Notes: generated from the sequence alone by a model not told the origin. DNA of 64,000 nucleotides from Dictyostelium discoideum (GCA_000004695.1 CM000151.3:6528001-6592000); one strand, 5' to 3'; shown: positions 5,702 through 60,398, counted from the stretch's first letter. Numbers and translations: made by a program.

Positions 5702-5751
<50 letters not shown>

Positions 5752-6212: not shown

Positions 6213-6254
<42 letters not shown>

Positions 6255-6271
6255 CTCTTTCAAGTTGTTGT

Positions 6272-6304
<33 letters not shown>

Positions 6305-7404: not shown

Positions 7405-7445
<41 letters not shown>

Positions 7446-7811
7446 TAATAAAATGATTAAATAAAAAAATTTAGATTTTGAAATATAAAATGGGTTTTTA
7501 TTTTTTATTTTTTTTTTTTTTTTTTTTTGATTTTTTGATTTTTATTTTTTTATTTTTTATTTTTTTTTTTTGTTGGTTGGGAAATTTGTTGTAAATTTTG
7601 GAGCTCACAAAGATAAAACTATTTGTTTGGTACCTATTTTTTTTTATTTTTTTATTTTTTATCTAAATTCCAAAAATATCATACCAAGAGAGAATTTTTA
7701 TTCAAATTTATATAACATACCCCCTCTCCAGATAGAATCATAAGTCACAATAGCACTCTATTGTGAGTTGTTATAAATAAAAAAAAAAAAAAAAATAATA
7801 ATAATAAAGAA

Positions 7812-7858
<47 letters not shown>

Positions 7859-8020
7859 GTTTTATGTGCAATAAATCAAATTCATAATTACCACCAATAA
7901 AAAATCCACAAAAAACTCACAATTTCACCACAATTACATATATAGATAAAATCAATTACATATATATATATATTTTTTTTTTTTTTTATTTTCAACAAAA
8001 ACAATACTCCCACATAAAGT

Positions 8021-8046
8021 AACCCCACCCCCACTCACACACACAC
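8021..8046. promoter_or_regulatory. C-rich/CA-rich element (AACCCCACCCCCACTCACACACACAC) about 190 bp upstream of the ATG at 8235; a candidate CAE/G-box-type developmental promoter element
   Basis: This is a very GC-skewed 26-mer in otherwise >85% AT intergenic DNA. Its reverse complement is GTGTGTGTGAGTGGGGGTGGGGTT, a G-box-like sequence. Confidence 0.3.
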
Positions 8047-8234
8047 TAAATTACTTTTTTTCTCATAATAACACAGATAATTTATTTTTCAACATTAAAA
8101 TATCTCCTGCTCATTCATAATAATATTCAAATAATTAAAAAAATAAAATATATAAAAATAAAAATAAAAAAATAAAAAATAAAAAAATAAAAATAGTAAA
8201 ATTAACACACAAGATATTTTTAAAAAATCCAAGA

Positions 8235-9014
8235 ATGAATCAATCAAAACTACCAATAACAAAAATTTCAGAAACTGTTTTTAACCGCTTAAACCAATCA
8301 AATGATGTTATTAACAACACCAATAATAACACCACCAACAATAACAACAACAATAACAACAATAATAATAACACCAATAATAAAAATAATATAAATTATT
8401 TATTAAAACCAATTAATGAAATTAATGAAAATAAAATTTTAAATGATCCATCAAATGAAAATGGATTAAAACAATTATTTTACGAAATTAATAAATATTA
8501 TAATAATTTTGGGAGTAAATTAATATTTTTCTCATTAATTGGAAGTGAATCATTTAATTTGAATATTGAATCAAGTGATCAAGATTTCTTTGGAGTTTAT
8601 GAATGTGATATTGATCAAATTTTGTCATTTGAAAGTTACTATTACAATAGAATTCCAATTCAAGTTTTTCAAAATAACAACTCAAATAATTCATTACAAA
8701 AAGATAGAGATCGTGATAATATAATCAACCCAAATGAAACCATTATTCATTTAAAACCAGATATTACAATTCACGAAATTAGACATTTTTCAAAACTTTT
8801 ATTATTAGGAAATCCAAAATTAATTGAACCCTTATTCATTGAAAACTTTTGTTCATCAAGTCAATCATGGTTAGATTTAATTAAAAATAGAAAACTTAAT
8901 TTTTATACAATAACTTGTTTAACTCATTATTATTCAACTGTTAAAGTTTTATATTTTGATATTAAATCAATTTTTGAAAATGATAAAAAACAAAATGAAA
9001 AACAACAAAATGAA

Positions 9015-9059
<45 letters not shown>

Positions 9060-10520
9060 AATGAAAAATCATTAAATGATAGAAAAAGTATTTTTAAAAA
9101 ATCATATCATATAATTAGATTATTAATTGAAATGAATGATATTATTAATTATAAAGATATTAGAATTTATTTACCAAATCAATCAGAAGAAAGAAAATTA
9201 TTAATGAAAATTAGAGAAGGTGAAGAAATTGATATTCAATCTTGTTTTGAATTAGTGCAATCTAAATATTTAGAATTTGAATCAAAATTTAATGAATTAA
9301 AAAAAAATTCAACAAATGATTCTTTAATTAAATTAAATTCAGCTAGAGCATTACACGTTTTAAATGATTGGGTGGTTGATATTAGAAGAAATTCAATTGA
9401 AAATTCAAATAATTTAAATTCATTTAAAAAATATAAATTTGAAAATGAAAATCATCATGATGAATCAAATAATAGTTTTAAAATTGCAATGGATTTAATG
9501 AATAAAAATAATATTAAAGGTACTTTAATTTATTTTGGTCCTTCAGGTAGTCATTTACATGGTTTACAAGATGATGATCATAATGATGAAAATAGTAATG
9601 ATAATGAAAAGATTGATTGGATTGGTATTTATGCAGCGCCAACTGATGATATTGTTTCATTATTCCCACCTGCATTAAAACATGATTCAAGTGGTTTCAT
9701 AATGCAATCAAATGAACATATTGGTATAAATCTTAATCCAGCACCTGATAGACCAAATAATCAAAATAAAAAGGATTCATTCAGTAAAGGTATCATTTTA
9801 TATGAATTAAAATATGCATTGCAATTAATTGTAAATTGTTCCTATAGAGTTTTAGAATGTGTTTTCATGTCTTCAAATCAAGTACTCAATAATCATCCAT
9901 TCAAAAATAAATTTTATATTACAGATGCATGGAAAGATTTCATTAATCAAGTTTTAATCAATGATAATAATAATAATAAAACTTTTTCAAAATTATCAAA
10001 TTCAAATTTAATTCAACAATATTGGGGACTTGCAAAAGGAATTAGTATGAAGAATTCAACAATTTTTAAAATGGTTAAATCAAATTTGTTAAGAAAAAAA
10101 GATGATGCTATTACTATTGCTGAAGAAGATTTAGTTACTGATGATAGTATTTCAAAGAATTTATTCTTTTTAAATTATTTATTAATACAATGTAATACTA
10201 TATTAAATGGTATTGTTTTTAATGAAAATAATACAATTATCAATTCTCCAAATAATGAAATTTTATTAAAAGAAAAAGAAATACCATCTATATTCATTGA
10301 TAAACAATCAAAAGATTATCAATTTTTAATGTCATTAAAACATAACAAGCTAAACAAACTATCAATCATTCAATCATTAATAATTGATTCTGATTCAATT
10401 TTAGAAGAAATTAGAATTAAATTAGATACTTTAAAGAAAATACAAAGAATTGATCTTGTAGAATTTGAAACTATAAAATTATTAAATTCATTTTATAATA
10501 AAGTCAGAAAATCATTATAA
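8235..10520 (+). CDS. Protein (761 aa) with two tandem predicted-nucleotidyltransferase (Pol-beta fold, RlaP/PF10127-like) motifs and poly-Q/poly-N tracts
   Basis: It is a single ORF from ATG to TAA. The first motif, LIGSESFNLNIESSDQDFFGVYECDIDQI, fits the hG[GS]x9-13[DE]h[DE]h pattern with GVY..P. The second, LIYFGPSGSHLHGLQDDDHNDE..IDWIGIYAAPTDDIVSLFPP, fits the same pattern with a low-complexity insert. Confidence 0.6.
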
Positions 10521-12566: not shown

Positions 12567-13242
12567 ACTTGAAATTGATTCTATTTTTAAAAAAAAAACA
12601 ATTAGAAAACTATATTTTAAAATATAAATTGAAAATTATTTTCATACATACTTAAAATAGTCATTCCAATATTTTTTTTTTTGTATACAAAAGAAAATAA
12701 TTTATTAAAAATGATTTTGAATTCCTTTTTTATTTATACAAAAAAAAAATTGAGCAAAATTTCAAAAATTGCTACAAAAAATATTATTAAAAAAAAAATA
12801 ATTAACACACCCACAAAAGTATATCTATATTATTAAAGATTACTTGTGAATTAAACAATCTGGTTGAATTTTACCAAAATTATATAAAGTGTAATTTAAA
12901 CAAAATTTTACACTTGTGTAAATAAATATTTGTAAAATTAAAAAAAAAAAAAAAAAAAAAACCAATGTGTTGATAGGTATATAATATTAATTATACCACC
13001 AATATTTTTAAAAATAAATTATATAAATTATTTTGGGGACCACTCAAATTTTCTCAAATGTACAAAATTATACAAAAAAACCTTGAAACACCACACCAAC
13101 TTGTTTATTAATATTAATTTTAAGTTGTGAATGAAAAAATAAAAAAAAAAATAAAGAACAGTTTTTTTTTTTTTTTTTTGTTATTATAGTTGTGTATTTT
13201 ATTTAGTTTATACAATTTATATATATATATTTTATTTTTATT

Positions 13243-16200
13243 TTAACTTTTAAAAGTTTTTAGTTTATTTTGTAATCCATTTTTGAATTTTGTATCTTTT
13301 TTCTTTTTGATTATATGGTAAGCAATGGAAATGGCAATTACTGCAGCAAATGCAATGGAGCCAATAATTATACCAATAAGTTGTGGTGTTGTTAATTTTG
13401 ATTGATTGGGAGTACAAACTGAATTTTCATCATTTTTTGAAGTTGATTTACTATCTATTAATACTGAGAAATCTGGATCAATAATTATTGATTTTTGATA
13501 GTTTGGTATTGTTATACCTATATATGATTGTGAAGATGATGCAGTTTGAATTGAGTTCATTTTTGAATCTAATAATACATTTTCAATGGTCGAAATTTTT
13601 GAATCAATTATTGCTCTTTTAATAAATCTACCATAAAGTGAATGGTCATTAATTTGAATTTTAAAATAATTTGAATTATCTCCATTACTAGTTTCACCAA
13701 AATCTTTTAATGAGCAAATTTCTTTAGTTTTCGATGACTCAAATGATGCAGACATTACAAGTTGTAAATTATTTAATTGATTTGAAAATTTATATTCTGT
13801 AATTTCAATTGTATATTTAATACTTGATGGATACATTGTAATACTAGAATTTGCAAATTCTATAGTACTTGTATCTTTAAACCATTCTAATATAACTGTA
13901 ATATTTGTATTAAATGGTGTAGTTGAATTATTTTTTATACTTGTAAAGTATTGACTTTTATTTTGATTAATTTGAGTAAATATCCATCGATCAAATGGGT
14001 ATAAATTTATTTGATTTCCATTAAAATCTAATTCTCTAATTGATACGATTGAAATTAATGATTTATATAAATAATTTATACCAGAAGGTTGTTGGTTATT
14101 ATTATTATCTATGATTGGTATTTCAGTTGATGGTTGTGAAGTGTTAGTTGAAGGTTGTGGTATAATTACAACTTGTGCATTACAATCATTACCAATCCAT
14201 GGTTGGTAACAAACACATCCTTTTGATGAGCAAAAACCTTGTTTAGGTCCTCCACATATTGGTTCACCTAAACATGTTTGAGGTTTATTAGTTGGTGTTG
14301 GTAATTGAGTCGTAGTTGTTGGTGTTGGTGTATTAAGTGGTGAAACAGAAAGAAAGGAAAATAAAGGTGTAACTATGAATTCATTTGATTGTTGACCATT
14401 TTTTGTAACTACTCTGATGGTGAATGGTTTATCAGTTGGGTCAATATCTAGTATTAATAATGCAGTTGAAAAAATTATACTTGGAAAAGAAATTTGAGAA
14501 AATACTAAATCAGTTGAATATTTAATTTGTACATATTGAATCGAGGTTTTAAATCCTCTTCCTACAATCCATAATTCACCACCTGTTGATGAAATTTGAC
14601 TTGTTCTTAAAATTTCAATCTTTCTAACCAATTGAATATTTGACATTGAATAAATTGGAAATGCGGATGAAATGTACGTACTTGGGAATCCACTATAATA
14701 ACCACCATTATTAATGAAACCATAAACACTAAATACTATATCTGAATTATATCCAAACCCTACTGGTAATTCAATTTCACATGTATAATTTGCAGTTTTT
14801 GAATTTATAGATTTAATTTTCGATTCACATTGAATAATTTGTAATTCTGTTGATTCAATATAAACAATTGGATATTGTTCATTTTTTAAACCAGTATCTA
14901 AATCGACGGCTTGAAAATCAAATGCTATAACAATTGTTTGAGAATCATTTAAAATTGTTTTCACTGCACTAAACAAAGTTAATTCTGGTGGTGAAATATC
15001 GTAACCGTCATTTTCAGTTGTACATTTTTTATATATTTTATTTATAGTTGAATCACCTAAAAAATTTATAAATGGATTTCTAATACTCTCACATTGTTCA
15101 GATACTGAAAATTTAGCGAAATTACCTCGAGTATCGAATAAATAAACATCTGTAATGATATAATTTTGAGAAGCACATAAAATTGATATTTTAATATTAA
15201 TTTGATATTCACCATTATATTTATCACCACTAGTTAAATTTAAAGGTGTTAAATGAAATTTATAAGTTGAACTATCCATTTCACCTCTAACAATAATATC
15301 ACCATAATCAAATCCATTAATTTTATCACCTATTACAAATTTCCAACCAAATTCATTTGTAGTATTTATTTTTTCAACTTTATTAAAAATTGGACCATAA
15401 CTATCGAAATCTATTATTATTTTTATTGGAATTAGTAAAACAATAATATATATATATAACACTTGTATTATAACTTACTTGATGAAATTATAAATAATTG
15501 TGCTGATAATGGTAACATTGTACTATCTATTGGGTTATAATTTGGATTTGAATTTCCATAAAGTTTAAAAGGTATATGACCAGGTTGAGTGTTAGCAGGT
15601 ACAGTGAATTCAATTTGGAACATTGATGTTGATGAATTCCATTTTGAGAATCTAAAATCTGAACTATCTAAATCACCATTTTTTAATATTGAAACTGGAT
15701 CATTTAATAATAATGCAAAAGAGCTACCTTTATCAAATTCACCTTCATAACTGAAATAAATGATATTATTAACAGATTTATTTGTAACATCAATATTATT
15801 ATATAAAAATGATATATTTGTAATTAATACTGGATTTAGTTCGCCAAATGGTATTTCAAATTTCAATAAAGGACTAATTGAATAATATTCACCTCTTAGA
15901 TAGTTTATTCTATTACTTAATAAATTTGAAATTGTAAATTTAGTAATTGAATCTTTATATAAATCTACAACTGTTTCAAATTCCAATACACTACTATTAC
16001 TTTCACTATCAACTACCGATTCATATCTTAATGTGATATCTGACCCTAGATATATTGATGCCCCATAACCATTTGTATTCACTTTAAATCTAAATAAATA
16101 ACTTTCATCAAATAATAATTTACATTCAAATTCTAAAAGAGTTGATAATATTGAACTATTTAATATTTGAGCTTAATTTTAAAATTAAAATGTGTAAAAA

Positions 16201-39408: not shown

Positions 39409-40559
39409 TTATTTTTTATTATGTAATGATCTTAAATCTTTACGAATTATTTTACCAGTTGTAGTAGTTGGTAATTCATTAATGAATTCAATTTCTCTTG
39501 GATATTCATGAGCAGATAATATTGTTTTTACATAATTTTGAATATCTTTTTTTAATTGATCAGATTTAGAATAGGAAGGATTTAAAACAATGAAAGCTTT
39601 TACTATTTCACCACGAATTTCATCAGGTACACCTACCACACCAACATTTGAAACTGAAGGATGTTTTAATAAACAATTTTCAATTTCTGAAGGACCAATA
39701 CGATAACCACTTGAATTGATTATATCATCATCTCTACCAACATACCAAATATAACCATCACTATCTTTTCTACCCAAATCACCAGTTACTAACCAATCAC
39801 CATTCATTTTCTTTTTAGCAGCTTTATCATTATTCCAATAAGTTAAAAATGCAACTGGATCTGGTGTTTTCAAAGCAATATCACCAACTTGATCAATTGG
39901 TAAAATCATACCATTCGAATCAATAATTTCAACGATATGTCCAGGTATTGGCTTACCAATTGAACCATTCTTGATTGGAAAAACTGATGGACAATTACCA
40001 ACCAATAGATTTGCTTCGGTTTGACCATAGAATTCTGCAATTTCAACATTGAATTGTTCTTTACCCCATTGTAATAGTTTTTCACCTAAACTTTCACCGC
40101 CACTTCCAATCGATGTCATATTAACAGGTGTTAATTTTAATTGCTCCTCTTGTTGTTTCATAATTTTCAACGCTGATGGTGGTAAAAATGCTGTATCTAC
40201 TTTATTATCAATCAATAGCTTACAAATCTTTTTTGGTTCAAATTTAGTCATACGATGAGCTAATACAGTTACACCATAATAAAGACTTGGAATTAATACA
40301 TCAAATAATCCACCAATCCATGCCCAATCTGCTGGTGTATAAAAAATATAATCATTTGTTGATTTTCTATTTGGAAAATTATTTTGTGGAAATTGTACAC
40401 CTGGTAAATGTCCTAATAAAACTCTATGTGCATGTAAACATCCTTTTGGATTACCTGTTGTACCTGATGTAAATATAATTACTGCTTCATCGTCTGATTT
40501 ACTTTTAATTGCTTCAAATTCTTTTGAATAATTTTCACTAATTTTATCATTCCATCTTT

Positions 40560-43350: not shown

Positions 43351-43432
43351 GACATCGTAGCAAAGTGGTCTAATGCGTCTGACTAGAAATCAGATCCCTT
43401 CGGGGGCGCAGGTTCGAACCCTGCCGATGTCG
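43351..43432 (+). tRNA. tRNA-Ser (anticodon AGA) with a long variable arm
   Basis: The acceptor stem GACATCG pairs with CGATGTC, followed by discriminator G. The anticodon stem-loop is TCTGA-CTAGAAA-TCAGA, giving anticodon AGA. The variable arm is the 13-nt stem-loop CCCTTCGGGGGCG. The T-arm is GCAGG-TTCGAAC-CCTGC, a B-box GGTTCGAACC. There is no intron. Confidence 0.85.
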
Positions 43433-43461
43433 ATACGTTATAAAAGATTTTTAATTTCCGA

Positions 43462-43472
43462 AGTTCGGGTCC
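43462..43472 (+). promoter_or_regulatory. External B-box-like element (AGTTCGGGTCC) 30 nt downstream of the tRNA
   Basis: It matches the B-box consensus GGTTCGANTCC at 8 of 10 positions. It sits between the tRNA 3' end and the retrotransposon 5' end, the arrangement typical of dictyostelid tRNA loci targeted by TRE3-type elements. Confidence 0.4.
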
Positions 43473-43699
43473 AGTTTTTAAGCCTATTAATAAATATTAA
43501 ATAAAACTCGTATTAAAAAAAAAAAACGAAAAAAACCGTACCGCGATCAAGAGGATACAAGATACACGTGAAAAGTAATTCATCCTTTTCTATCCTTAAT
43601 CTCGGTCAATTTTAACCAATCTTTCAAAAAAAATCACCAATCCACCACGATCTACAGATCTAACTTACCAAATCGCCGATTCAAAGGAATCCCATCGAG

Positions 43700-44953
43700 A
43701 TGAATTCCTACGCAGACGCGGCTAAAATGGCCAACCCCTCCACCCATATGGACGAGGCATCAGAGAACTTCATTAAGGAATTCTCCACAAAAACAGCAGA
43801 GATAAAGGAGACCTACCCCAAATTATCAATAGGCCTCAAAGACATCTCCAAATACTGCGAGACCATATTGAACATGACTGCGCTCTCAACCTACGAGAAA
43901 AACAACGGATTCTACCCAATTACACTCGAATTCCCCAAAATGGATCTCATGGGGTTAGAAGAAATGAGAAAAACACTCTCAAACTACGATATCCCAATCG
44001 ACAAGATATACATAGGCAAAGGAACTAGAAAAATGATCCACCTGATGATTAAAAACGAACAATCTCTCCTAAATATCATTAGAGATAGAAGCAAATTGGG
44101 AACCTTCATCACCTCCAGTAGAGACTACCACGTCCTCACAGGAAGAGTAAGAATTCCAAGAGAAAAGGCAGGAATAGTGGACGCCCTCATCAAAACTGCC
44201 TTTGCAGAAGAAATGCCCTATGCAATATACCATACTATATACTCCACCGACCACCTCCTAGTATTCGGTCTAATAGAATGCGAAATAGGCGATCAAATGA
44301 AATCTGGCCAACACAATACAGAAATCGCCAACTTTACCATCAGAACGGCCACCAAAACCTACTCCTCACAAAAGAAAAATAAGAAAGTAGAGTCAAACAA
44401 CACGGAAGAACCATTAGAAGATGAGATGACAGATGATCCTCCCAACATCCAAAACAGGATAGCAATCAAATCCTCTCAACCAAAACCACAACAACAAACA
44501 AACAACCCAGCAAACAATAAGTCTGATAAACAATCAACCCAAGAGAAAAAAGCCCAATCAAAAAAGTCCTCTCAACCTCTTCCCCCCAAAAACCAAGCAG
44601 AATCTCAATCTGTCAAACCCACCACAACCACTACCACAACATCCAACGCCATCCAAAAAGACAATGCCAACAAAACGAGCACTAACATCCATTCATCCTC
44701 GGAAAACAGAGAGAAGACACCAAACATCCCTCCATCACATAAACGCAAGAACGAGGAAATCCACTCAAACAACGAGGTCACCCAACTCTCACCAACAATA
44801 AACAGAAGCAACCCTTACATCCCATCCACCCCTAAGACACCTGTCAAAAATGAAAGGAAAGGAATCATTGAGAGCTTCATAGAGAGTATCTACCCTTCAC
44901 CATCCAAACCGCAGCTATACGACTCCCAAGAGGAGATCGATATCATCTCATAA
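43700..44953 (+). CDS. Retrotransposon ORF1 protein (417 aa) with a basic Ser/Thr/Pro/Gln-rich C-terminal half
   Basis: This is the first ORF of the TRE3-type element and ends one nt into ORF2's ATG. Its N-terminal half is non-repetitive (MNSYADAAKMANPSTHMDEASENFIKEF..). Confidence 0.7.
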   Translation: MNSYADAAKMANPSTHMDEASENFIKEFSTKTAEIKETYPKLSIGLKDISKYCETILNMTALSTYEKNNGFYPITLEFPKMDLMGLEEMRKTLSNYDIPIDKIYIGKGTRKMIHLMIKNEQSLLNIIRDRSKLGTFITSSRDYHVLTGRVRIPREKAGIVDALIKTAFAEEMPYAIYHTIYSTDHLLVFGLIECEIGDQMKSGQHNTEIANFTIRTATKTYSSQKKNKKVESNNTEEPLEDEMTDDPPNIQNRIAIKSSQPKPQQQTNNPANNKSDKQSTQEKKAQSKKSSQPLPPKNQAESQSVKPTTTTTTTSNAIQKDNANKTSTNIHSSSENREKTPNIPPSHKRKNEEIHSNNEVTQLSPTINRSNPYIPSTPKTPVKNERKGIIESFIESIYPSPSKPQLYDSQEEIDIIS

Positions 44954-47900
44954 TGGTAGTAATCAAAATCAACCAATGGAATGTCAGAGGTTGGGGCACT
45001 GACACCTCCTTCAAAAACAAAACAGACTTTATCAAATCCCAATCCCCCCCAAACTCATTGGCAATAACCATAGTCAATGAACTCAACGCCGACGCAACAC
45101 AAGCACACCAGCTATTTCCTGGCTCCATCATTAGCGCAACCAACAGAGGCAACGGAATAGGAATACTAAACCACAACAACCAAAACATAAAACTCTCACC
45201 AATATTCATAATAGAAGGTAGACTAATAATATCAGACATTCTAATAAAAGATACCACAACGAGAATCTTGGCCATATACGCCCCGGCCCAACCTGATAAA
45301 AGAAAAACACTAGCTTCAACACTAAACAAACACTTCAACAACCAATACCACAACCTAACGTCTAACCCTAAAAAAAACATCGACATCATAGCAGGCGACT
45401 TCAATTGTTTAGACTTCAATGACAATCACACATCAAATGATGACCAAGGCAACTTGACAACACAATCCCCAGATGAGATGGCCACAGTAATCGAAGCCAT
45501 CAGAATTTCAAATAACCTAATGGATATGGACCAACTAAATAAAAGACCCACCTTCTCAAGAACGATACACAACACAAACAATAACCTCACAAGAATCTTG
45601 GAAAGGAGACTAGACAGAATATACCTTAACAATAGCATAATCAACTACAGCCAATTATACTTAAGGAACCTAATCCCCCCAAAAATTAATGACATACCTC
45701 TATCAGATCACAACTTCCTATCAACCACCTTCACTCTACCCAACATACAGATGAACAAGCGCAGATGGAGATTAAAAAAATCCTCAATCCTCTCAAGCAT
45801 AATGCTTAAGAAAATAGACTTCCTACTTAACGATTATTCAAGGGAGCTGTCATCCAACCATAACTCTATTTCCTTCTCTCAACTCAACAGCTTACTAAAC
45901 AAAATAAAACAACTATACACAGAATTTCAAAAACAAAATGACTACAACAATAAGGCAAACATCAAAAATCTAATCTCCCTACTAGAGACAGAATTTAAAG
46001 ACCAAGCCTTCGCAACCCTTTCAGCAATAAATGAATCTAAAAAAAGAGAAGAACAACTTAAACAAGAATTGAACAACTATTGCGAAGAAACCTCACTCAA
46101 GTACATCTCCGCGAGAATCAAGAAAAGACACAATGATTTCACCATCAACGCAGTAAAAGATGCACAAGGTAGAACAATCAACAAACAGGAATTGATCGAA
46201 GAAGAATACGTAAAATATTACTCAAATCTTTATGACTACAAAGAAGATGACCCACCATCTCATTATGAAATGTTGGAAAATTGGACAGTGACCAGGGACT
46301 CAACATGGGACAACCTTGAAAATGAATTCACATCACAAGAGATCCTAGAAGTAATAAAACAATTGAACCCACACAAATCTCCAGGCCCAGATGGAATTCC
46401 AAACTTATTCTACATAACACACAAAGAAAAACTAGCTCCAATACTGGCCTCAGCATTCAACGACACTCTAAGAAATCCTCATCTAATTAGCAAAAATTAC
46501 AAAGAAGGCCTCATTATCACGATACCTAAAAAGGGAGACCCCGAACTAATCAAAAACAGAAGACCAATTACACTGGCTAACTGTATATATAAAATCCACT
46601 CAAAACTAATAAACAATAGAATAATCCCAATACTAACGAAAGTGATCAACCACAATCAAAAAGGTTTCGTACCAGGCAGATTCATTATAGATAATATCAT
46701 ATCAATGAACGAATTAATCAACTATTGTAATGATAAAAGAATTAACGGAATAATTACACTATATGATTTCGAAAAAGCTTTTGACTCGATCTCACACGGT
46801 TCAATACTCAGATCACTACAACACATCAACATTCCAACCAATATAATCAACCTGATAATGAATCTACTCACCAAATCTGAAGCAAGAATTGAAATTAATG
46901 GTAGAACTACTATACCCTTTGAGATCAAAAGAGGAGTTAAACAAGGAGATCCACTATCACCCACCCTGTTCGTCCTTGTAATAGAGGCTTTAGCTAGAAA
47001 AATTTTACAAGATGACCGAATTACTGGCCTTCCTCTAAACAACAGCAACCACAGAGAGAAATTCCAAAGCTTTGCAGACGACTCGGCTTCAATGGTCCCA
47101 GACTCTCAACAACTTGAATTAGTACTACAACACTTCAATTCATTTTGCAAAGCCACTTCCTCAAAACTAAACATCGACAAATCTTCATCAATTCTTATAG
47201 GCAACCCAGACAATACCAACCAAAGAATTCCAATATCTACAAATCCAGAAAGATACTTGGGATACTTCTTCACAGGCAAAGGGATAACAAGAAAAATGCC
47301 AGAAATATTAAACACAATAAGATCATCCTTAGTACTATGGAAAACCACTGACTCAACAATCAAAACCAAAACCAACATCCTCAAAGCATTCGCACTCTCT
47401 AAATTAACCTACTATTCATATGTAGAGAACTTTAAGGAAGAGGAATTAAACCAAATCAATAAATTAGTCGAATGGTTTTTATCGGCACCAAACAACAAAA
47501 ATGCTAGTGGATTTCAAGTTATTAATTTAATGAGAGCCAAAAGAGCAAGATACCCACTAAAAGTAGGAGGCTGGAACATTTGGAATATAGAATTGAGACA
47601 ACTGGCGCAGAAACTTTGGATTATAAACCAGTTCATCCTAGCACTAGAAACCAAACAAACAAACTCATCTCATCACAAAAGCTGGGAATATCAGATCCAA
47701 AAAAACAAATTCACATCCAGATACCTAAAAGAAAACTTAGACGAATGGAACAAAATAAGAATAAAAAAAGCAATCTTCAACAATAATCTCACATCCATAA
47801 AAAACGAAAATGGACAACCACTTTCACTGGCAGAATGGTATACCACAATTCAAGACCAAAATCCAACCATCCCTAAAACGGAATTCCAATCATCTCTAAA

Positions 47901-48657
47901 CTTAAGAGGCTACAGCTATAATCAACTCTTCAACAATATACTGAAGATAAAAGACCCTAAAACAAGAGACACAATGTTTAGATTCCATGCCAGATGCCTT
48001 CCAATAAACTACCTTCACAACAAACAATGCCCACTCTGCAAAGAAGATATGAGCAAAGACCCATACGGTCACCTGTTCTTCTCATGCAAGAAAACAAAAC
48101 AATTCATAAAAATAAATAAACTCAAAAATTTCATCTTTATTACCACAGGCAAAGGTAAAAACTGGCACCATACAAGAATTAGGCAAAATAACAATTTCAT
48201 TAATAGAATAACTCCAAAATTATCACCGACAGCCAAAAAAGATCAAGAAGTGAATGCAGATTACGCCAACCACAGATTCCACAAAGAATACTTTGAATGG
48301 AACTATAAAGCAATAGACTATGATCTAACCAGATCATTCGCATATAGAAACCTAATGGCCCTTATCCTCCACAACATTTGGATTTGGATTTGCAATCAAA
48401 TATACAGTGAAGATCCTTTAACAGATGAATCACTATCATACAGCTCCCTTCTAAAGAAATGGCACAAATTGGCCACTCTAGAATACATCAAAAAAGCAAA
48501 AGATCTGAAAAACTTATCAGCAAAAGACCATAATAACTTCAAAGATCCTAAGATCCTTCTCACTTCAACGATCAAGCTAAGAAAAACAACAGCTAATTAC
48601 TATTGTATTCCAGAATCATCTCTCCCAAATATTATATCTTTTGATCAATTCATATGA
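44953..48657 (+). CDS. Retrotransposon ORF2 polyprotein (1234 aa): apurinic-endonuclease-like domain, reverse transcriptase and C-terminal zinc-knuckle-like region
   Basis: The N-terminus MVVIKINQWNVRGWG.. is an EEP/APE endonuclease start. The RT blocks are ..FYITHKEKLAPILASAFN.., GFVPGRFIIDNI, ITLYDFEKAFDSISHGSI and QSFADDSASMV (the F/YxDD box). The whole ORF is intact with no internal stops. Confidence 0.8.
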   Translation: MVVIKINQWNVRGWGTDTSFKNKTDFIKSQSPPNSLAITIVNELNADATQAHQLFPGSIISATNRGNGIGILNHNNQNIKLSPIFIIEGRLIISDILIKDTTTRILAIYAPAQPDKRKTLASTLNKHFNNQYHNLTSNPKKNIDIIAGDFNCLDFNDNHTSNDDQGNLTTQSPDEMATVIEAIRISNNLMDMDQLNKRPTFSRTIHNTNNNLTRILERRLDRIYLNNSIINYSQLYLRNLIPPKINDIPLSDHNFLSTTFTLPNIQMNKRRWRLKKSSILSSIMLKKIDFLLNDYSRELSSNHNSISFSQLNSLLNKIKQLYTEFQKQNDYNNKANIKNLISLLETEFKDQAFATLSAINESKKREEQLKQELNNYCEETSLKYISARIKKRHNDFTINAVKDAQGRTINKQELIEEEYVKYYSNLYDYKEDDPPSHYEMLENWTVTRDSTWDNLENEFTSQEILEVIKQLNPHKSPGPDGIPNLFYITHKEKLAPILASAFNDTLRNPHLISKNYKEGLIITIPKKGDPELIKNRRPITLANCIYKIHSKLINNRIIPILTKVINHNQKGFVPGRFIIDNIISMNELINYCNDKRINGIITLYDFEKAFDSISHGSILRSLQHINIPTNIINLIMNLLTKSEARIEINGRTTIPFEIKRGVKQGDPLSPTLFVLVIEALARKILQDDRITGLPLNNSNHREKFQSFADDSASMVPDSQQLELVLQHFNSFCKATSSKLNIDKSSSILIGNPDNTNQRIPISTNPERYLGYFFTGKGITRKMPEILNTIRSSLVLWKTTDSTIKTKTNILKAFALSKLTYYSYVENFKEEELNQINKLVEWFLSAPNNKNASGFQVINLMRAKRARYPLKVGGWNIWNIELRQLAQKLWIINQFILALETKQTNSSHHKSWEYQIQKNKFTSRYLKENLDEWNKIRIKKAIFNNNLTSIKNENGQPLSLAEWYTTIQDQNPTIPKTEFQSSLNLRGYSYNQLFNNILKIKDPKTRDTMFRFHARCLPINYLHNKQCPLCKEDMSKDPYGHLFFSCKKTKQFIKINKLKNFIFITTGKGKNWHHTRIRQNNNFINRITPKLSPTAKKDQEVNADYANHRFHKEYFEWNYKAIDYDLTRSFAYRNLMALILHNIWIWICNQIYSEDPLTDESLSYSSLLKKWHKLATLEYIKKAKDLKNLSAKDHNNFKDPKILLTSTIKLRKTTANYYCIPESSLPNIISFDQFI

Positions 48658-48754
48658 TTAAAATAACCCTTCAGCTTAAATGATAAGCCTTTAAATAAAT
48701 ATTAAATAAAACTCGTATTAACACAGATGGACATATATCAATCTTGTTAATCCA

Positions 48755-48824
<70 letters not shown>

Positions 48825-49115
48825 AAATACTCAAAAAAAAACACCAACTAAGGTATTAGTCTAAAAAAGATAGGTGCCCAGCCCAGTTACAACCATGAAC
48901 CATTTTATCTAAGCAAAAAAAAAAAATAATGTAAAAAAAGTATTTTAAAAAAAGAAGAAAACACGTTAATTAAAAATAAAATGTTATTTAAAAACAAAGG
49001 GTTTTTTAATTAAAATTTATTTAAATATTATTACAGGTTTTTATTTTAACTAAAAAATTATATTTTACAAATAAATAATTAATATTAATATCACTAAAAA
49101 TTTTGAAATTACATT

Positions 49116-51133: not shown

Positions 51134-52494
51134 TTAAAGGAAATATAATTTATCAGATAAATCTTTATCAACATTACGACCAACAGTTCTACCAATTAAA
51201 AATGCCATTTTATGAGCAAATTGACAACTTGCTGGTACACGAACAGATTTTTCAAAATTGAAATAAAGATGACACATTTGGAAAGTAAAGAATTGGAATA
51301 AATCAGCAGCCATTTGATGTTCATCCAATAAGACATGGTAATGAGTTGGATTGATTGAACCTTTGAAAGCAACTTGAGAGACCAAAAAGAAATCGTACCA
51401 ATTTTGATGGGTAATCTTTGAATCGATTAAAGTACCTGGTGGAGGATTTGCTTTTTGATTATCGTTTGTAAAGAAACGAGCGTTTGTATTCTTTTTAACG
51501 ATAGTGTAAACCAATTTTGGTTTAGTACCCCAAGAAGAAGGAGTTTCGGCAAAACCTTTTTTCATTGCGGCAATTTCAGTCTTATTGACGAGATCCAACA
51601 TACCATCACCAACACCATCACGATAAACAATCACCAATTCTGGTAAACAATTGTTATGGTTAAAGTAGCTTTTCATAGCTTCTTTGGTGGCGTCCTCAAG
51701 GGAATGAATAATTTCTTTACCAGGACGTTCTTGAGCGTAAGCACGAGAGAAAAACTTTTGGAATTTATCATCGATGGTTGCAACGAAACCAACCACTGAA
51801 TGACCTTTCATATCTGAATTGTGACCAACATCGACACCAATGACCATGGTTTTCTTTGGTACACCCTTGTAGATATCTTGACCGAGACCCCATGGTGCTA
51901 AACCTAACTTGGCAACCACTTGTTGTTTCAATTTGACAGAGACTGGTCTACCTTTATCAAAGGTTCTAGAAAAGATACATTGAGTTAAAACTCTGAATTG
52001 GATCAATGACTTCATTTTGATACCTTTGTAAACTTCTGCATTATTTTGAGGAATAATAATCAAAAAGAAGCTAACACCTTTTTTGACATATTGTTCCATA
52101 ATATCAGTGTAAATGGTTGATTTAATATCACGGGAACTCTTTGGAAGTACTGGATGATGAATAGTTGGTGGTTGTAATTGACTTTCTCTAAGGAAAAGAT
52201 CAAGATTCTTTTGACACTCACCTCTTTGGAAATCAAGTTGTTCAACAATGAATACCCATTTAACATTTCTCAATGCATTGGCGTTATTAATTGGAACATT
52301 CTTTGGTGCTTGTAATACACAACCTTCAACTTTTAAAGCTGGTTGATAAGAAATACCCCATGATTCCAACTCTTTTGAAATTGTTGGATTTGTATTAAAT
52401 CCATTAACAAAATTATTTAAATTATCAATTCTTTTATATGGTTCAACATTTGATTCTTCTGCTAAATCTTTCATAATATGAAAATCTTTACGCA

Positions 52495-52538
<44 letters not shown>

Positions 52539-54276
52539 TAATATTAATATATTTTTTTTTTAAAAATATGTATTTAAAATATATATTTTAATAAAATTTT
52601 TAAAACTTACTTCATCATTTAAACCAGTTAAATAAGTTAATTCTGGAACTAAATAAATTGTTTGTTTCATACCTCTCATTTTAACTTCAGATTTTAATAA
52701 TGGTTGATTTAAATCGGTGATTTTATATTTTGGATAATTCTTTTGATAATATTGTAAAAAGGTAGTTGAACCTTCCATAATATCGGTAACCTTTGAATTT
52801 TTACCTTGCCATGAAATACCAGAGATACGATAAGTTTTATTATTATAACGAGTTAAAACAATTGAATTTACAATTTCAGCGGTGCATCTATTGGTATTAT
52901 TATTTAAATATCTAATTCTTTCCAATACAGTCTGAGATCTAACAACTTTGGTAGTTGAATCACATAATAACATTGTACCAGCTTCAGTTGGAATAACTGA
53001 TGTACTAAAACCTTTCCAAACTTCTAAAAAGTGTTTTGGTACATCTCTTTTACCAACTGATGTATAATAATTTCTACCCATTAATGAATATCCCATTGAT
53101 CTCATAAACTAATAAAAAAAAATAAATAAAAAAATTTAATAATTAATTATTTATATATTAATATATATTTATAAATTTATATTTATAAAAACCTACAGAT
53201 TTGGTTAAAACATTAAAGAATTGAGTAATTGATTTATCAGTATGATCAAATTCTTTTGCTAATTTAATTAAAATTTGAACTCCATCAACATTTTGAGAAT
53301 TAATTTGAATCTTTTTAGCAGAGAATAATAAAGAATCACCATCATATTTAGTAAAGATTAAAGAATTTGCAGCTAGGAATTCTTTCATAACCTTGAATCT
53401 TCTATCTCTTGCAACTTGTGGTGGATCGTAATCAATACGATAGAGGAATAAACTTCTATTTTGTCTTACTTGAACTGGGAAGAAATTTGTAATAACAGAA
53501 ATTGGTTGACTTTGAATTGATCTTGGTTTTGCTGGGACAATTGCAATATTTTCAATATCATCATCTTTGACTAAATCTTTTCTTGAAATTGTTGGAACCT
53601 GTGCTGCTGCTGGTGAACTTGATGAAGTGGTAGTAGTAGTGGTAGTGGTTGTTTGTTGTTGTTGTTGTTGTTGCTGTTGTTGTTGTGGTTGTTGTTGTGG
53701 TTGAAGATTTTGTGGTGGCTGCTTACCCCAAGAACCACTTGGTTGTTTTGGTTGACCTTGTTGTGGACCTTGTTGTGGGCCCCTTTGTTGTTGTTGACCT
53801 TGTTGTTGACCTTGTTGTGGACCTCTTTGTTGTTGTTGACCTTGTTGTGGGTGACCTTGTTGTGGGTGACCTTGTTGTGGACCTCTTTGTTGTTGTTGTG
53901 GGTGACCTTGTTGTGGACCTCTTTGTTGTTGTTGTGGGTTACCTTGTTGTTGACCTTGTTGTTGTGGACCTCTTTGTTGTTGACCTTGTTGTGGGTGACC
54001 TTGTTGTTGGCCTTGTGGGTGACCTTGTGGGTGACCTTGTTGATGGAAACCTGGTGGTGGACCTCTTGGTTGTTGTTGTTGTTGTTGTTGTTGTGGTTGT
54101 TGTTGTTGTTGTTGTTGTGGTTGTTGTTGTTGTTGGAAACCTGGTGGTGGACCTCTTGGTTGTTGTTGTTGTTGTTGATGTTGTGGTTGTTGTTGGAAAC
54201 CTGGTGGTGGTTTTACGCCTCCTGCTGGATTTGGTTGGTTTGGTTCATCTTGTATGTTTGGTTTTTTAGGACCCAT
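51134..54276 (-). CDS. Argonaute/Piwi-family protein (~979 aa): Gln/Gly-Pro-rich repeat N-terminus, PAZ and Piwi domains; three exons 54276..53197, 53108..52611 and 52495..51134
   Basis: Exon 1 is MGPKKPNIQDEP.. with (QGHPQQG)n repeats and ends ..NVLTKS|GTAGGT. Exon 2 (FMRSMGYSLMG..EVWKGFSTSVIPTEAGTMLLCDSTTKV..PAZ..TYLTGLNDE|GTAAGT) is phase 0. Exon 3 begins after AAAAAG| and reads MRKDFHIMKDL... The Piwi catalytic-triad context is present: GVDVGH, IVYRDGVGDG and NPTHYHVLLDE. The C-terminus is ..QFAHKMAFLIGRTVGR..KLYFL*. Confidence 0.75.
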
Positions 54277-54942: not shown

Positions 54943-57727
54943 TTATTCTTTCCAAAATTTAATACCAATCTTTTTTAGAATATCTTTTTTTGCGCCATTA
55001 TTTGATGGTTGATTTGGAGGTGAAAATTGTTGAGATGTTATTGAATTTGGTGATTGTGGTGATTGAGGTGATTGTGGTGATTGTGGTGATTGTGGTGATT
55101 GAGGTGATTGTTGATCACTACTACCATTATAGGAATTATTTGAACCAGAAGATGAACTAGATAAATCTTGAGATGATACTGTTCTGAGTGGTTGAGATGA
55201 ATTTACATTTTCATGAACACTAACAGGTCTAGATCTACTACTTCCGATTTGAACTGAAGGTTGTGTTGTTCCAGTATCAGCAGCAGTATAATGGAAATCA
55301 CTAATTGAATGTTGTGGTGATAATACAGGAGATTTTATATCTTGACCACCATTGGCTTGTTGATAATTACCAATACCACCAACACTATAACGCTTATTTA
55401 TTGGACTATTATTACCACTTGGTGAACCACTACCACCACTATTATTATTATTTGAATTATTATTATTATTATTTGGATTATGAATACAAACAAAATCAAA
55501 AGACATACCAAGTTTTTGACATTTTTCTTTTGCTTCTTTTAATGCAGATAAATTATTTTGATCATCAGATTCACGATAACCTAAAGCAAACATTAAAGTT
55601 TTAACCAAAAGTAATCTTGGTTGACCAATTGGGAAAGTTTCAGCAAATCTTTCCAAAATGGTTATGGAATCATTAATTTCGGTGACTAATCTTGATTTGG
55701 GGACAGTGACAGCAGTAGCAGAGATATGTTGATGATTTTGTAAGATTTTAATGAGTACCAAAGGTAAACCAGTGTAAGCTTCATACATTGAAAAGTTATT
55801 GGCATCACATTTACTAATGATAATTGAAACACGTCTACAACAATCATAAGCCAATTGCCAATCTTTTTCATTGATTGCAATTTGAGCTTTTAGAATGGTA
55901 TAGTTTGCATGAGCAGAATTCGATAGCTCTTTAATTGACAATAGGTCAACCAAACGTTCAATATCTTGTAGAATGGTATGACAACGTTGGAATTGTCTCT
56001 CGTAAAATAATGCACAACCTTCCACTGTTAGAGCCAATATTTGATTATGATTATCACCACGATTTCTTGCACTCTCCAAAGCTTTAGTGGTTTGTTGATA
56101 GATTAATGATAACTTTCCACCATTGCTACCCAATAAAAGGTAACAAACCGATAAGAATATATTGGATTCTTCCATCAACTTTTTATCACCCGTTTTATGT
56201 GATGCCTCGATCGATTTCTTATAACCACTTTCTGCCTCTTCCCATCTACCTAAACCAGACATATAAATACCCCAACTTTGATGACTATTACCATAAACAA
56301 ATCCATTTGTTTGATCCATTTTAGATAATACTTCTGCATAATATTTTAAAGGTGTTGATGAATCACCATTATTACCTAAAACACGTATACCAATTGAATA
56401 TGCTTCAGCTTGTAAATTCCAATCTGTTAATGATGTTTGTACTGTTGTTGTCGTTGTTGTTGTTGAACTTGATGATAGTTCATTATTATTTGAACTATTA
56501 TTATTATTATTATTATTATTATTGTTATTATTATTATTATTATTATTACTATTATTATTACCTAAACTATTAAATAATCTATTTTTAATACTACTATGAC
56601 TATTATCAAATGAAAGTTGTAATGAAACATAAGAACACCAAGAATCTAAAGTTTTTGAACAATCATGTAATGAAATTTTACTTTGAACGAATAAACATAA
56701 AATTGCTTCTCTCTTTTCTAACATATCTAAATTACAAGAAAAGAATTTTGTAGCTGAATCTTGTCTTACAGCTGCTTTTGCCAAAGTTCTTAATTTTGGT
56801 TTACTTGCACCACTTGAATAATCTTTTGGTGTTGGTGGTTCAAGACCTAAATATTTCAATGCATTCAATAAATGATAAGATGCTTGTCTAAATCTACCAA
56901 CATTAAATAATGCTAAACCTAATTTTCTAGTTATTGATATAATTTCAATTGGTACTTTTTTAAATCCTAAACTAACTAAATCTGCTAATGTTGGTGGATT
57001 TAATATTGTATTATTATTGTTATTGTTATTGTTATTATTATTATTATTTTTATCCTTTTCTTTATCTTTTTCTTTCTCTTTCTCTTTCTCTTTTTCTTTT
57101 TCTTTTTCTTTATCCTTATCTTTTTCTTTTTCTTTATCTTTATCTTTTATATCTTCACCTAAATTACTAAGTGAATTATTATTACTATTATTATTACTAT
57201 TATTATTACTATTATTATTATTTGAATTACTATTTACTAAATTTGAATTATTTGAATCCATTAAATCTTGAAATGAAATATTATTTGGATTATTTGAATT
57301 TGAAGAGATACTAACAGCATCTTTTAAATTTTGAGAGGAAGAACGACGATGTAATTTTTTATGAATTTTAACTTCTTCCTCTGCAATGAATTCTTGTTCC
57401 ATACATTTTAGAGCAAGTTGAAAGAATTTAATTGCCTCTTTATTATTATTTTCAGCTTGGGCCAAAACACCAGCTTTCGTTGCGTATTCAATGGTTTTTG
57501 AATTATTTTGAGCTGAATGATAATGATGAACCAATGAAATGAATAAAGAATGTTGTGGTGTACAAGTATCCTCTAAAACTTTAGCAATCTTTTGATGAAG
57601 CTCCCTTCTTTGTGAGAATAACATTAAATCGTAAATTACTTCTTGTGTACGAGTATGATGAAATGAGTATAATAAATTATTATTAATAATTGAAGTTGGA
57701 GTTGATGGTTGTTCATTAGCATTATTA

Positions 57728-57759
<32 letters not shown>

Positions 57760-60398
57760 GTTATTGTTATTATTAATATTTGGTTGTGATGCTAATAATA
57801 AAACATTATTAGTTTTATATGAACTATGATCAGCTTGATTATTTAATAATTGTTTTTGAAGTTGTTGTTGTTGTTGTAATTGTTGAAGTAATTGTTGTTG
57901 AGTATTAATAGTTGTTGATTTAATGAAATCCAATCTTTCCAATACAGCTAAATCTTTTGCTAAATCTTGTTTACTAATTGCATCCAATGGTAGAATACGA
58001 TGAAGTGAATCAACAGTAAAAGGCATACCAATTACAGAGGCAATTTTCAACTCCAATTGTTGAATGGGTGATAATCTATCGACTCTACTAGTGATCAATG
58101 ATGTTACAGTACGTGGTAATGATAGTCTAACATGGTCAATTGCCTCTTTAGGATTAATGAATCTTGAAGATGCTTCATCGATTAGTCCATTTGAAATTAG
58201 ACCATTCACCATCTCCTCAATTACAAAATGATTACCTTGTGAACGATTATAGATCTCTTCAATGATTTCATCTGGTATACCACTTTCATCACTTGGAAAA
58301 TCTAACATTCTCTCTACCAATAGTGTGGTTTCAACCTTACCATTCAATGGTTCCAATTGAATTTTCGTTACCAACTCTGTTGGTAATTGACTGAATCCAT
58401 AGGGTATACCATCTTTTGAGGGACGTAATGAAATGATTATTAAACAATTTGCTAAATTTTTAACAGCATTCAATGTTAATGTCCAACTTGCACTGTCCAT
58501 AAATTGTGCATCATCAATTACAATAATACTACCAGTTGGTATTGCTTTTGTTAAAATTTTCATCATTGTCAATTGTAATGATTCTGCTCTTTGTTGTGCT
58601 GAATATCTACGATTCTCTTTTAATTCTTCTGATGTTAATTTAATAACTGATGTTTGTAATTGATTTTGTTCAACTATTGGTAATTTTTCATTATTTTCAT
58701 TGCCATTATTATTATTATTATTGATTATATTTATATCTAAAACTTGATTTAATAATTGAATTTGAGTAAAATTAAAATCAGAAAATGATTGATAACCATT
58801 AATTGATTCATCTTTTAAAAATTGTAATAAAATTTGTTTCCAAATATAAAATGAGATTGATTCAGACATTTGAATACCACTTGCTTTAAACATTTTTAAA
58901 TCCATACAAAATGAATATTTAATTTCAGAGATTAATCTAGATTTACCTAAACCAGCTTCAGCTTCAATGATTGCGACATGAGTTGGACCAGAATTACTTG
59001 TGATTTGATCGATTATATTTGCCATTTGACGTAATTGAGTGTGTCTTCCAATGATACCTTTATTCTTTATCATATGACGTGGTGATGAATTTTTCATTGA
59101 TTGTAATTTTTTAATTGGTTTATAAACATTGATTGGGGCAACTTTACCCTTGACTTTGATTGGATTTGCCAATTTAACAAATTCAATCATTTTTGCAGTT
59201 TTCGAGGTTTCTTCATCACAAAGTACACCACCTTGTGAATGTGACATTAAACGTGCTGCCAAGTTTACAATATCACCAACCACGGCATATTCCCTACGTT
59301 CATCACTACCAACATCACCACAAAAACATTTACCAGTGGTGATACCAACCGATGAAATCACTGCCAATTTGAAAACATTTACCACAATCTCCATTGCAGC
59401 TTCAACTGCACGTGATGGATCGTCCTCATGTGAATAAGGTGGTACACCCCATGCTGCTATCAGGACACAACCCTTATCATCCACTATAAATTGACGAACT
59501 GTACCTTCATGTTTATAAACTATCGCTTGACTTTCAAATACAATATTTTGAAGTTTATCTAAATCTGTGTCTGGATTTGGAGTACCATAGGATAAATTCA
59601 TAAATAACACAGTGATATAACGTAACTCTGCCAAATAATCATTTTTGAATTGATTGTGAACTGCATTTGGTACGAATCTTTTCAAAGAATCCTCCATATC
59701 CATTAGTAGTGGTAACTCTTGTAAGAATTTATGATTGATTTGAGAGCCAACCATGGTTGAGAGGAAATCGAAATCATTGATTAAATCTTTCTCCAAAAGG
59801 GTTGTTATCGATTCCAATTTGTAGTTATGTTTTTGTTTCTTTTGTGAAAAGGTTGCATATGGTTTCATCTTTTCTTGAGTGGCTGGTGATACATAGATCT
59901 CCCCAGACTCTGCCTCCTTTTCACATAGAGTAGCTTGAATTAATGCTTCACCACAAATTAAAAACTCTACTTTCTCTTTACAACCACCAACGTAAACCCC
60001 ACTAATATCACCACATCCAATACCAATATGCAATGTTAAGAATCCACCTGGCACTGGGAAATTATGTAACTTCTTTTGTAATGCCAATGAACATTCACAT
60101 GCAATTCTAACCCTATTTATCAACTCTCCATTGGTTGGCCAATGTGCTAATACTGCATCACCTGCAAACTTTACAATATCACCTCCAAATCCTTTCACTA
60201 TCTTTATCAGTATTGTAAAATATGAATTTAAATTCTTTGTTAATAATTCAACACCTTCTTTACCATGATTACCTAATCTTTCTGTTAGTGATGTAAATCC
60301 TGAAATATCTGCAAATAATACACATGATGAATATCTATTTTTTAAAAAAAAAAAAAAAAAAAAAAAAGTTAAAATTTTTGTTTTCTCTTATTATTAAC

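Follow-up and report, generated by a model that had tools for sequence, protein, structure and literature searches.

The stretch analysed here, a 64,000-nucleotide (nt) window of one strand of Dictyostelium discoideum DNA (GCA_000004695.1 CM000151.3:6528001-6592000), contains a single transfer RNA (tRNA) gene. This is a tRNA-Ser(AGA) gene, located by ARAGORN and also recovered by Rfam (RF00005, 61.5 bits), which found nothing else between 42 and 50 kb. Downstream of it, in the same orientation, lies an element with two uninterrupted open reading frames (ORFs), which encode proteins of 417 and 1234 amino acids (aa), flanked by an untranslated region (UTR) on the 5' and on the 3' side and ending in an oligo(A) tail (Table 1). 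Very probably, this element is a full-length, structurally intact copy of a retrotransposon without long terminal repeats (non-LTR), TRE3-A (formerly Tdd-3), starting 96 to 103 bp past the end of the tRNA gene. A first-pass annotation of the same DNA had described the tRNA-Ser gene, the two uninterrupted ORFs with an overlap of 1 nt, a 3' UTR of about 100 nt followed by an A60 tail, and a codon usage less AT-rich than that of the host, and all of these features were recovered: the ORFs overlap within the sequence TAATG, the 3' UTR measures 102 nt, the tail comprises exactly 60 A, and guanine-plus-cytosine (GC) content is 35-43% inside the element, where composition is strongly biased (A>T and C>G), against 11-25% in the flanks.

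The ends of the element were set by comparison with six other full-length copies, of which L001 (the second copy of a tandem) and L007 come from a D. discoideum assembly and L003 to L006 from assembly GCA_054859145.1, which is labelled D. citrinum. All six begin with A(5-12)CCGTACCGCGATCAAGAGG (shared 5' start, A(5-12)+CCGTACCGCGATC) and end with CCAATATT(T)-A(16-30), and four of them (L001, L004, L005, and L007) are bounded by unambiguous target-site duplications (TSDs) of 9-17 bp. Because this A(n)CCG-type terminus is common to the six copies, the window element is taken to start at 43529, where its A7 run begins, or at 43536, where CCG begins. Counted from CCG to ATT, the core thus has 5224 bp, and inclusion of the 5' A7 brings it to 5231 bp; its start falls 58 nt past a box resembling an external B box (ex-B box). 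An earlier placement of the start at 43478, about 15 nt past that box, and the resulting length of about 5.28 kb without the tail have to be revised on these grounds, the boundary shifting by 50 bp. The length of the 5' oligo(A) run varies among TRE3-A copies, with 5-12 A preceding CCGTACCG, and TRE3-B starts with A7CCG; the terminus shared by the two families could reflect start-site slippage or untemplated addition. At the other end, the 3' UTR contains the hexamers AATAAA (at 48694) and ATTAAA (at 48701).

The affiliation of the element is evident mainly in ORF2, which encodes an APE endonuclease, a reverse transcriptase (RT) with an FADD motif, and a CCHC zinc knuckle, the order published for TRE elements (PMC5006619). 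The match to the Pfam family Exo_endo_phos is weak (E=2e-3, below the gathering score), yet it covers profile positions 2-225 of 225; RNase H was absent from the Pfam matches of ORF2. In a phmmer search of the PDB, the best match to ORF2 was human LINE-1 (L1; long interspersed nuclear element, LINE) ORF2p (E=3e-50), with aa 312-820 collinear with residues 311-823, and R2 proteins matched more weakly (1e-31). ORF2 is also about 100% identical to "hypothetical" D. discoideum RT proteins and belongs to a 79-member cluster at 90% identity. Taken together, the tRNA-linked position, the orientation, the APE-RT-CCHC order, and the position of L1 ORF2p as closest solved relative support the prediction of a TRE3-type, L1-clade retrotransposon. 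This agrees with the first-pass annotation, which had proposed an L1-like TRE3 element on the basis of the APE endonuclease, the FADD-containing RT, and the Cys-rich tail, all of which were located, and no other LINE clade supplied a closer solved relative.

Assignment within TRE3 was based on length, abundance, and the arrangement of the reading frames. According to Table 1 of PMC5006619, TRE3-A has a consensus of 5229 bp and 67 copies in strain AX4, of which 13 are full length with intact ORFs; the corresponding figures are 5279 bp, 43, and 9 for TRE3-B and 4734 bp, 29, and 2 for TRE3-C, and TRE3-D is represented by a partial consensus and 11 copies, none of them full length and intact. TRE3-A is the most abundant TRE3 family in D. 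discoideum (PMC5006619). The six relatives of the window element measure 5219-5223 bp. A separate D. discoideum family, here called family Y (AX4/ACTFIT), shares 42% ORF2 identity with the window element, and its intact first copy in locus L008 runs from an A7CCG terminus (471-478) to 5764, that is, over 5287-5294 bp. We therefore assign, with confidence, the window family to TRE3-A and family Y to TRE3-B, since their core lengths fit 5229 and 5279 bp, respectively, and since abundance agrees, the 90%-identity clusters having 79 members for the window family and at most 21 for family Y (a rough proxy that spans several assemblies).

The position of the element relative to its target gene is likewise typical. 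At five other loci with TRE3-A, a tRNA gene lies upstream in the same orientation, at distances of 83, 106, 122, 145, and 315 bp, the last belonging to a copy that sits behind another TRE tail in a tandem. TRE3 elements are reported about 100 bp downstream of tRNA genes, within a range of 40-150 bp and in the same orientation (PMC5006619, PMC5911963); given these loci and the literature range, the spacing of 103 bp in the window is canonical for TRE3. The internal B box of the tRNA gene, GTTCGAACC, fits the consensus GTTCRANYC (PMC3159450) exactly, and a second T5 run (43475-43479) follows the likely terminator. The ex-B-like box, GTTCGGGTC, begins 30 nt past the end of the tRNA gene, as the first-pass annotation had noted, and matches the consensus at 8 of 9 positions. 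By itself the pattern is not above chance: with one mismatch allowed, it occurs 99 times in the window, with 111 ± 11 expected. The label "ex-B-like" therefore rests on position, on comparison with the perfect ex-B boxes found at the equivalent position behind tRNA genes in L004, L007, and L008, and on the literature, in which about 80% of the tRNA genes in D. discoideum are reported to have an external B box (PMC5911963).

Table 1. Features at the tRNA-Ser locus (positions counted from the first letter of the 64,000-nt window) and target-site duplications of comparison copies
Feature	Position	Strand	Evidence or remark
tRNA-Ser(AGA) gene, integration landmark	43351..43432	+	ARAGORN; Rfam tRNA 61.5 bits
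Internal B box GTTCGAACC, TFIIIC site	43412..43420	+	Exact fit to GTTCRANYC
T5 run, likely RNA polymerase III terminator of tRNA-Ser	43448..43452	+	Terminator role presumed
Ex-B-like box GTTCGGGTC, imperfect	43463..43471	+	8/9 vs GTTCRANYC
Separate 50-bp piece outside the full-length element	43479..43528	+	38-nt TRE3-A 3'-UTR fragment, A12 (43515-43526), then CG
Non-LTR retrotransposon with A60 tail, full length, very probably TRE3-A (Tdd-3)	43529..48819	+	Shared ends with and identity to six copies; 5231 bp without tail
5' UTR, begins A7-CCGTACCGCGATCAAGAGG	43529..43699	+	5' terminus conserved in all copies; internal promoter presumed
ORF1, 417 aa	43700..44953	+	Conserved N-terminal domain of about 200 aa; low-complexity basic Ser/Thr/Pro-rich tail
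TAATG stop/start overlap, 1 nt; ORF2 in -1 frame vs ORF1	44951..44955	+	Conserved in all intact copies
ORF2, 1234 aa; APE endonuclease, RT, CCHC zinc knuckle	44953..48657	+	Uninterrupted
APE endonuclease domain, aa 8-253	44974..45711	+	Pfam Exo_endo_phos; N10, E43, GDFN148, SDH251
RT domain, aa 524-771	46522..47265	+	Pfam RVT_1 E=1e-33; FADD at aa 707
CCHC zinc-knuckle motif CPLCKEDMSKDPYGHLFFSC, aa 1026-1045	48028..48087	+	Conserved in TRE3-B
3' UTR, 102 nt, ending CCAATATT	48658..48759	+	End common to all copies
Uninterrupted A60 tail	48760..48819	+	Exactly 60 A; other copies 16-30 A
Stretch with 34% GC core, ends A12	48820..48937	+	Directly after A60 tail, beside 11% GC intergenic DNA
TSD of L001			ATAATGCAT
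TSD of L004			ATATTTAAAAAAAAAAT
TSD of L005			AGATCTTATA
TSD of L007			ATAAAGGAA

Much less can be said of ORF1 from homology. Among 1.84 billion representatives searched exhaustively with HMMER, only nine were relatives, with 31-79% identity, and in these the N-terminal domain shows near-invariant positions (H114, S140, D142, H144, P173, Y177, Y181, F189, L191-E193, and D198); neither sequence nor profile searches gave a match to ORF1 in Pfam or the PDB. AlphaFold2 models were poor: the predicted local distance difference test score (pLDDT) was 39 when the single sequence was supplied and 44 with an alignment of 10 sequences; only residues 70-130 exceeded a pLDDT of 70, and aa 72-151 followed a beta-alpha-beta-beta-alpha-beta order. 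In a Foldseek search with the pLDDT 44 model, L1 ORF1p appeared at rank 36 with a probability of 0.54. A resemblance to tandem ACT domains in the same type of search was judged meaningless (template modelling scores 0.14/0.33, root-mean-square deviation 13 Å). By analogy with TRE5-A, whose ORF1p binds TFIIIB subunits in vitro (PMC5006619), ORF1p would be the likeliest reader of the RNA polymerase III (Pol III) complex.

Comparison among copies also bears on the age and possible competence of the element. The 5223-bp copies of L003 to L006, located at about 1054-6281 of each locus, share 100% identity with one another, and each lies at a tRNA gene of its own (Ser-TGA, Leu-AAG, Arg-TCG, and Lys-TTT), which is direct evidence of very recent TRE3-A transposition in that strain. 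The window copy is 94.7% identical to these four and 98.7% identical to L001 and L007. It has the same layout of 417 and 1234 aa joined by TAATG as L003 to L006, and its reading frames contain neither a frameshift nor a stop relative to that actively transposing lineage. L001 and L007 each carry a lesion, namely, a change of the ORF2 ATG to ATA with the 1234-codon frame otherwise open and a 2-nt deletion that truncates ORF1, respectively. The ratio of nonsynonymous to synonymous substitution rates (dN/dS) between the window copy and L003 was 0.16 for ORF1 and 0.10 for ORF2, and that between the window copy and L001 or L007 was 0.08-0.09 for ORF2. With L003 as outgroup, 29 changes (0.55%) were assigned to the private branch of the window copy. 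ORF2 has 11 synonymous and 3 nonsynonymous private changes (N140K, T862A, and Y1062F), none of them in a catalytic motif; ORF1 has 6 synonymous and 9 nonsynonymous changes (e.g., K84M, K195E, I206N, and P299Q), and the UTRs have none. Neutral evolution would yield about 3.8 nonsynonymous changes per synonymous change. Because the observed ratios are below this value, most private changes appear to have been fixed in a replicating lineage and few to have arisen since insertion, and the pure A60 tail, the longest among the copies examined, points in the same direction of a young insertion. The first-pass annotation of a full-length copy with intact ORFs is upheld by the closeness of the element to the family consensus and by the ends that it shares with the six copies. 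Being full length, with both ORFs open and the catalytic residues intact, the window copy is, as judged from its sequence, a credible competent element.

Some observations nevertheless weigh against a full-length, competent TRE3-A copy that expresses ORF2 from its own start codon. The window copy has no recognisable TSD, and one may be masked by the A-runs; the 5' junction is atypical, with a 3'-UTR scrap and A12-CG before the element; the choice between TRE3-A and TRE3-B rests on length, abundance, and frame arrangement; with nine nonsynonymous and six synonymous private changes, ORF1 may contain an inactivating one; and according to a review (PMC5911963), ORF2 expression in TRE3-A depends on a -1 frameshift. 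As to the family, a start at 43478-43480 would give about 5280 bp without the tail and would thereby fit the 5279-bp consensus of TRE3-B (formerly RED). The 5' end at A(n)CCGTACCG set by the six copies with shared ends, four of them TSD-bounded, yields 5224-5231 bp instead, which fits TRE3-A; family Y, at 5287-5294 bp and 42% ORF2 identity, is a better fit to TRE3-B; and the window family is the larger by cluster membership, as expected of the most abundant TRE3 family. That the element is TRE3-B thus seems highly improbable. The scrap at the 5' junction is a separate matter. Of its 50 bp, a 38-nt stretch is identical at 36 positions to 48684-48721 of the 3' UTR, and the piece has no counterpart at the 5' ends of the six other full-length copies. 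The 3'-UTR-derived sequence stops 21-28 nt past AATAAA/ATTAAA, as expected of a proximal poly(A) site, which reads ...CTCGTATTA-A(n). The piece may be the minute remnant of an earlier, 5'-truncated insertion, or else a chimera produced by template switching. If it belonged to the same insertion event, the RT would have switched from the TRE3-A 5' end onto a second TRE3-A transcript, and it is in keeping with such a switch that the piece directly abuts the element with no TSD between them, that the two filler nucleotides, CG, are reminiscent of the untemplated or microhomology bases seen at LINE 5' junctions, and that the piece ends where a proximally polyadenylated transcript would stop. A tiny older insertion whose A-tail was later targeted by the full-length copy explains the arrangement equally well, though, since a single tRNA gene is often hit repeatedly (L001, L006, and L008 hold tandems; PMC5006619 supplement), and a 5' extension of this kind was seen in no other copy examined; we consider the single-event origin rather unlikely.

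Whether the copy could be a relic, dead in spite of its open ORFs, through missense change in ORF1, loss of the promoter, or the abnormal 5' junction, must be weighed on the same data. The excess of nonsynonymous over synonymous private changes in ORF1, the lack of a detectable TSD together with the foreign 50-bp piece, and the lesions in both closest relatives, which indicate that decay is common in this sublineage, would all fit a relic. Set against these are the 11 synonymous and 3 nonsynonymous changes in ORF2, the fact that even ORF1 stays below the neutral ratio, the UTRs free of private change, the intact catalytic motifs, and the long pure A60 tail suggestive of a young insertion, and on balance we doubt that the copy is dead. 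The question raised by the review is how ORF2 is translated. Programmed -1 frameshifting would produce an ORF1-ORF2 fusion; in addition to the published statement, the position of ORF2 in the -1 frame, its frame being open for 27 codons (81 nt) upstream of its own AUG, and the natural copy L001, in which ATG has become ATA in an otherwise open frame, are compatible with this. The 81-nt overlap, however, contains no slippery heptamer of the form X XXY YYZ, the sole such heptamer of ORF1 (AAAAAAG, position 44560) falls in a region in which the frame of ORF2 is closed, and folding of 120-nt windows at the junction gave z-scores of -1.9 to +0.9, with no excess of RNA structure. Furthermore, a start codon placed on the stop codon is conserved in TRE3-A, where UAAUG is kept at 5% nt divergence, and is independently present in TRE3-B as AUGA, although the ORF1 of that family is unrelated in sequence (E=0.31). 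Coupling at UAAUG is documented in SART1 (Kojima et al. 2005, as cited in PMC2881922). Because the AUG sits on the ORF1 stop, TRE3-B has its AUGA, SART1 offers a precedent, and frameshift signals were not found, termination-reinitiation is somewhat favoured for ORF2, and frameshifting seems improbable. The 1-nt overlap that had suggested reinitiation in the first-pass annotation is conserved and accompanied by neither a slippery site nor a structural signal; reinitiation itself stays a favoured inference. The compound proposal that stop/start-coupled reinitiation, and not frameshifting, serves ORF2 expression throughout TRE3, and that the 5'-junction scrap goes back either to polyadenylation at the proximal site or to template switching by the RT of TRE3-A, has in our estimate about an even chance of being right. 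L001, with its ATA codon, is a natural test case for reinitiation versus frameshifting.

Comparison with known elements places the window copy squarely within TRE3-A, with which it shares the host AX4, the position and orientation relative to a tRNA gene, two ORFs with ORF2 in the -1 frame, the APE-RT-zinc-finger order, the oligo(A), and the length; it differs only in its 50-bp 5' scrap and its unrecognisable TSD. TRE3-B, represented by the first copy in L008, has in common with it the targeting downstream of tRNA genes, the domain order, the A(n)CCG terminus, and overlapping ORFs in a -1 arrangement, and differs in its 42% ORF2 identity, its unrelated ORF1, its 4-nt ATGA overlap (1 nt in TAATG), its length of about 5290 bp, and its dissimilar 3' UTR. 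The sister subfamily TRE5-A (DRE) has the same ORF2 domain order and Pol III-guided tRNA targeting (PMC5006619, PMC5911963, PMC3159450), but it inserts in a head-to-head arrangement about 50 bp upstream of the tRNA gene; its UTRs are built of A, B, and C modules, the B-module being duplicated, and its ORF2 is about 30% identical to that of the window element. Human LINE-1 (8sxt, 8c8j, and 8uw3) shares a collinear RT with its flanks, an N-terminal APE, and a C-terminal Cys/His motif, and it likewise has a bicistronic RNA and unconventional ORF2 translation; the window element, in contrast, is tRNA targeted and has ORFs that overlap rather than being separated by a spacer, and its ORF1 has no detectable sequence similarity to human L1 ORF1p. 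SART1 of Bombyx mori is another APE-type non-LTR element with UAAUG, in which, according to the same source (PMC2881922), translation of ORF2 needs translation of ORF1; it is telomere specific and belongs to clade R1, and its likeness to TRE3-A, for which coupling is predicted from sequence, is purely mechanistic.

A life cycle consistent with these features can be proposed. A promoter in the 5' UTR would give rise to a bicistronic poly(A)+ RNA, from which ORF1 would be translated, and a fraction of the terminating ribosomes would reinitiate at UAAUG to yield a small amount of ORF2 protein. The APE of ORF2 would then nick the target, and the RT would copy the RNA from its poly(A) tail. Target-primed reverse transcription from an APE nick is established for the L1 clade. 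The product would have its A-tail distal and its 5' end proximal to the tRNA gene, usually with a TSD of 9-17 bp. Sites would be chosen by reading the Pol III complex, through TFIIIC on the B or ex-B box and/or TFIIIB, probably by way of the ORF1 protein, as suggested by work on TRE5-A and by the insertion positions.

Several further loci and neighbouring sequences were characterised along the way. In L001, positions 1-6310 hold a head-to-tail tandem of two TRE3-A copies, the downstream one carrying the TSD ATAATGCAT. In L013 (D. citrinum), positions 12934-14533 contain a tRNA Asp-GTC gene that comes right after a paralogous Argonaute gene and is itself followed by a 5'-truncated TRE3-A fragment, 90% identical to 47605-48791 of the window. 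L008 holds, at 326-10165, a tRNA-Lys gene and two tandem copies of family Y, assigned to TRE3-B; the first is intact (ORF1 of 402 aa and ORF2 of 1275 aa, with an ATGA stop/start overlap), and nested repeats of TATTACCAAAAG and TTTTAGTATTACCAAAA at the junctions suggest a complex insertion history. L002 (GCA_054859355.1, labelled D. discoideum) has a degenerate TRE3-like element at 1685-6729 whose ORF2 is 58% identical to that of TRE3-A and closest to a D. purpureum protein (63%), without a close AX4 counterpart. This element may belong to a further TRE3 lineage, or else its strain may be a divergent one; with this degeneracy, divergence, and affinity, and with no AX4 family to match it, it was discarded as a TRE3-B reference. 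Downstream of the A60 tail, the stretch at 48820-48937 had no match, A-runs excepted, in the window or the 13 fetched loci and may be what is left of an older mobile element at the tRNA-Ser gene.

Among the genes of the window, two ORFs exactly match proteins of AX4 chromosome 2 (DDB_G0276297 and EAL69318, a zinc-containing alcohol dehydrogenase), and the closest AX4 gene with an exact match lies 14 kb from the element. A complete three-exon Argonaute gene (51134-54276, minus strand; ArgoN, ArgoL1, PAZ, and Piwi domains) lies 2.3 kb downstream of the element and is followed by a guanylate-cyclase/AAA-type gene (54943-60198). No homologue of the Argonaute gene with at least 90% identity was found in the homology search, the best reaching 60-61%, despite the window's origin on AX4 chromosome 2; the homologues P0201 and P0202 were rejected as an orthologous locus, being paralogous and nonsyntenic. 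For the ORFs flanking the element, the same comparison yielded no record or read contigs of just 1.2 kb. On the other side of the tRNA gene, a 280-aa ORF (39409-40251, minus strand) corresponds to the C-terminal part of an AMP-binding enzyme, and its exact sequence occurs only in short read-assembly contigs (SRR26869256, SRR26869257, and SRR26869268).

In sum, the element belongs to a family that is already known, and an intact TRE3-A copy is not exceptional, because 13 such copies of TRE3-A and 9 of TRE3-B have been tallied in AX4; the window copy, on AX4 chromosome 2, is presumably one of the 13. The suggestion that it is a candidate active master element is not supported in view of that tally (PMC5006619); no link to daughter insertions emerged from the analysis, and nothing in it distinguishes the copy as a source element. 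TRE3-A is a textbook case of safe-haven targeting in a gene-dense genome, and the importance of this copy beyond annotation is small. For annotation, the exact terminus A(n)CCGTACCG, together with the spacing of 96-103 bp, separates true element ends from scraps in tRNA-linked arrays. TRE5-A is the only one of these elements whose retrotransposition has been studied experimentally in detail (PMC5006619) and for which a tagged assay has so far been developed; the window copy, or better L003 to L006, would serve reasonably well as a template for a tagged assay of TRE3. The one mildly novel thread is that the conserved overlaps of TRE3-A and TRE3-B, with no slippery site, provide a testable alternative to the published frameshift statement. 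If reinitiation is indeed the mechanism, TRE3 would be the second independent non-LTR lineage, after SART1, to use eukaryotic translational coupling.

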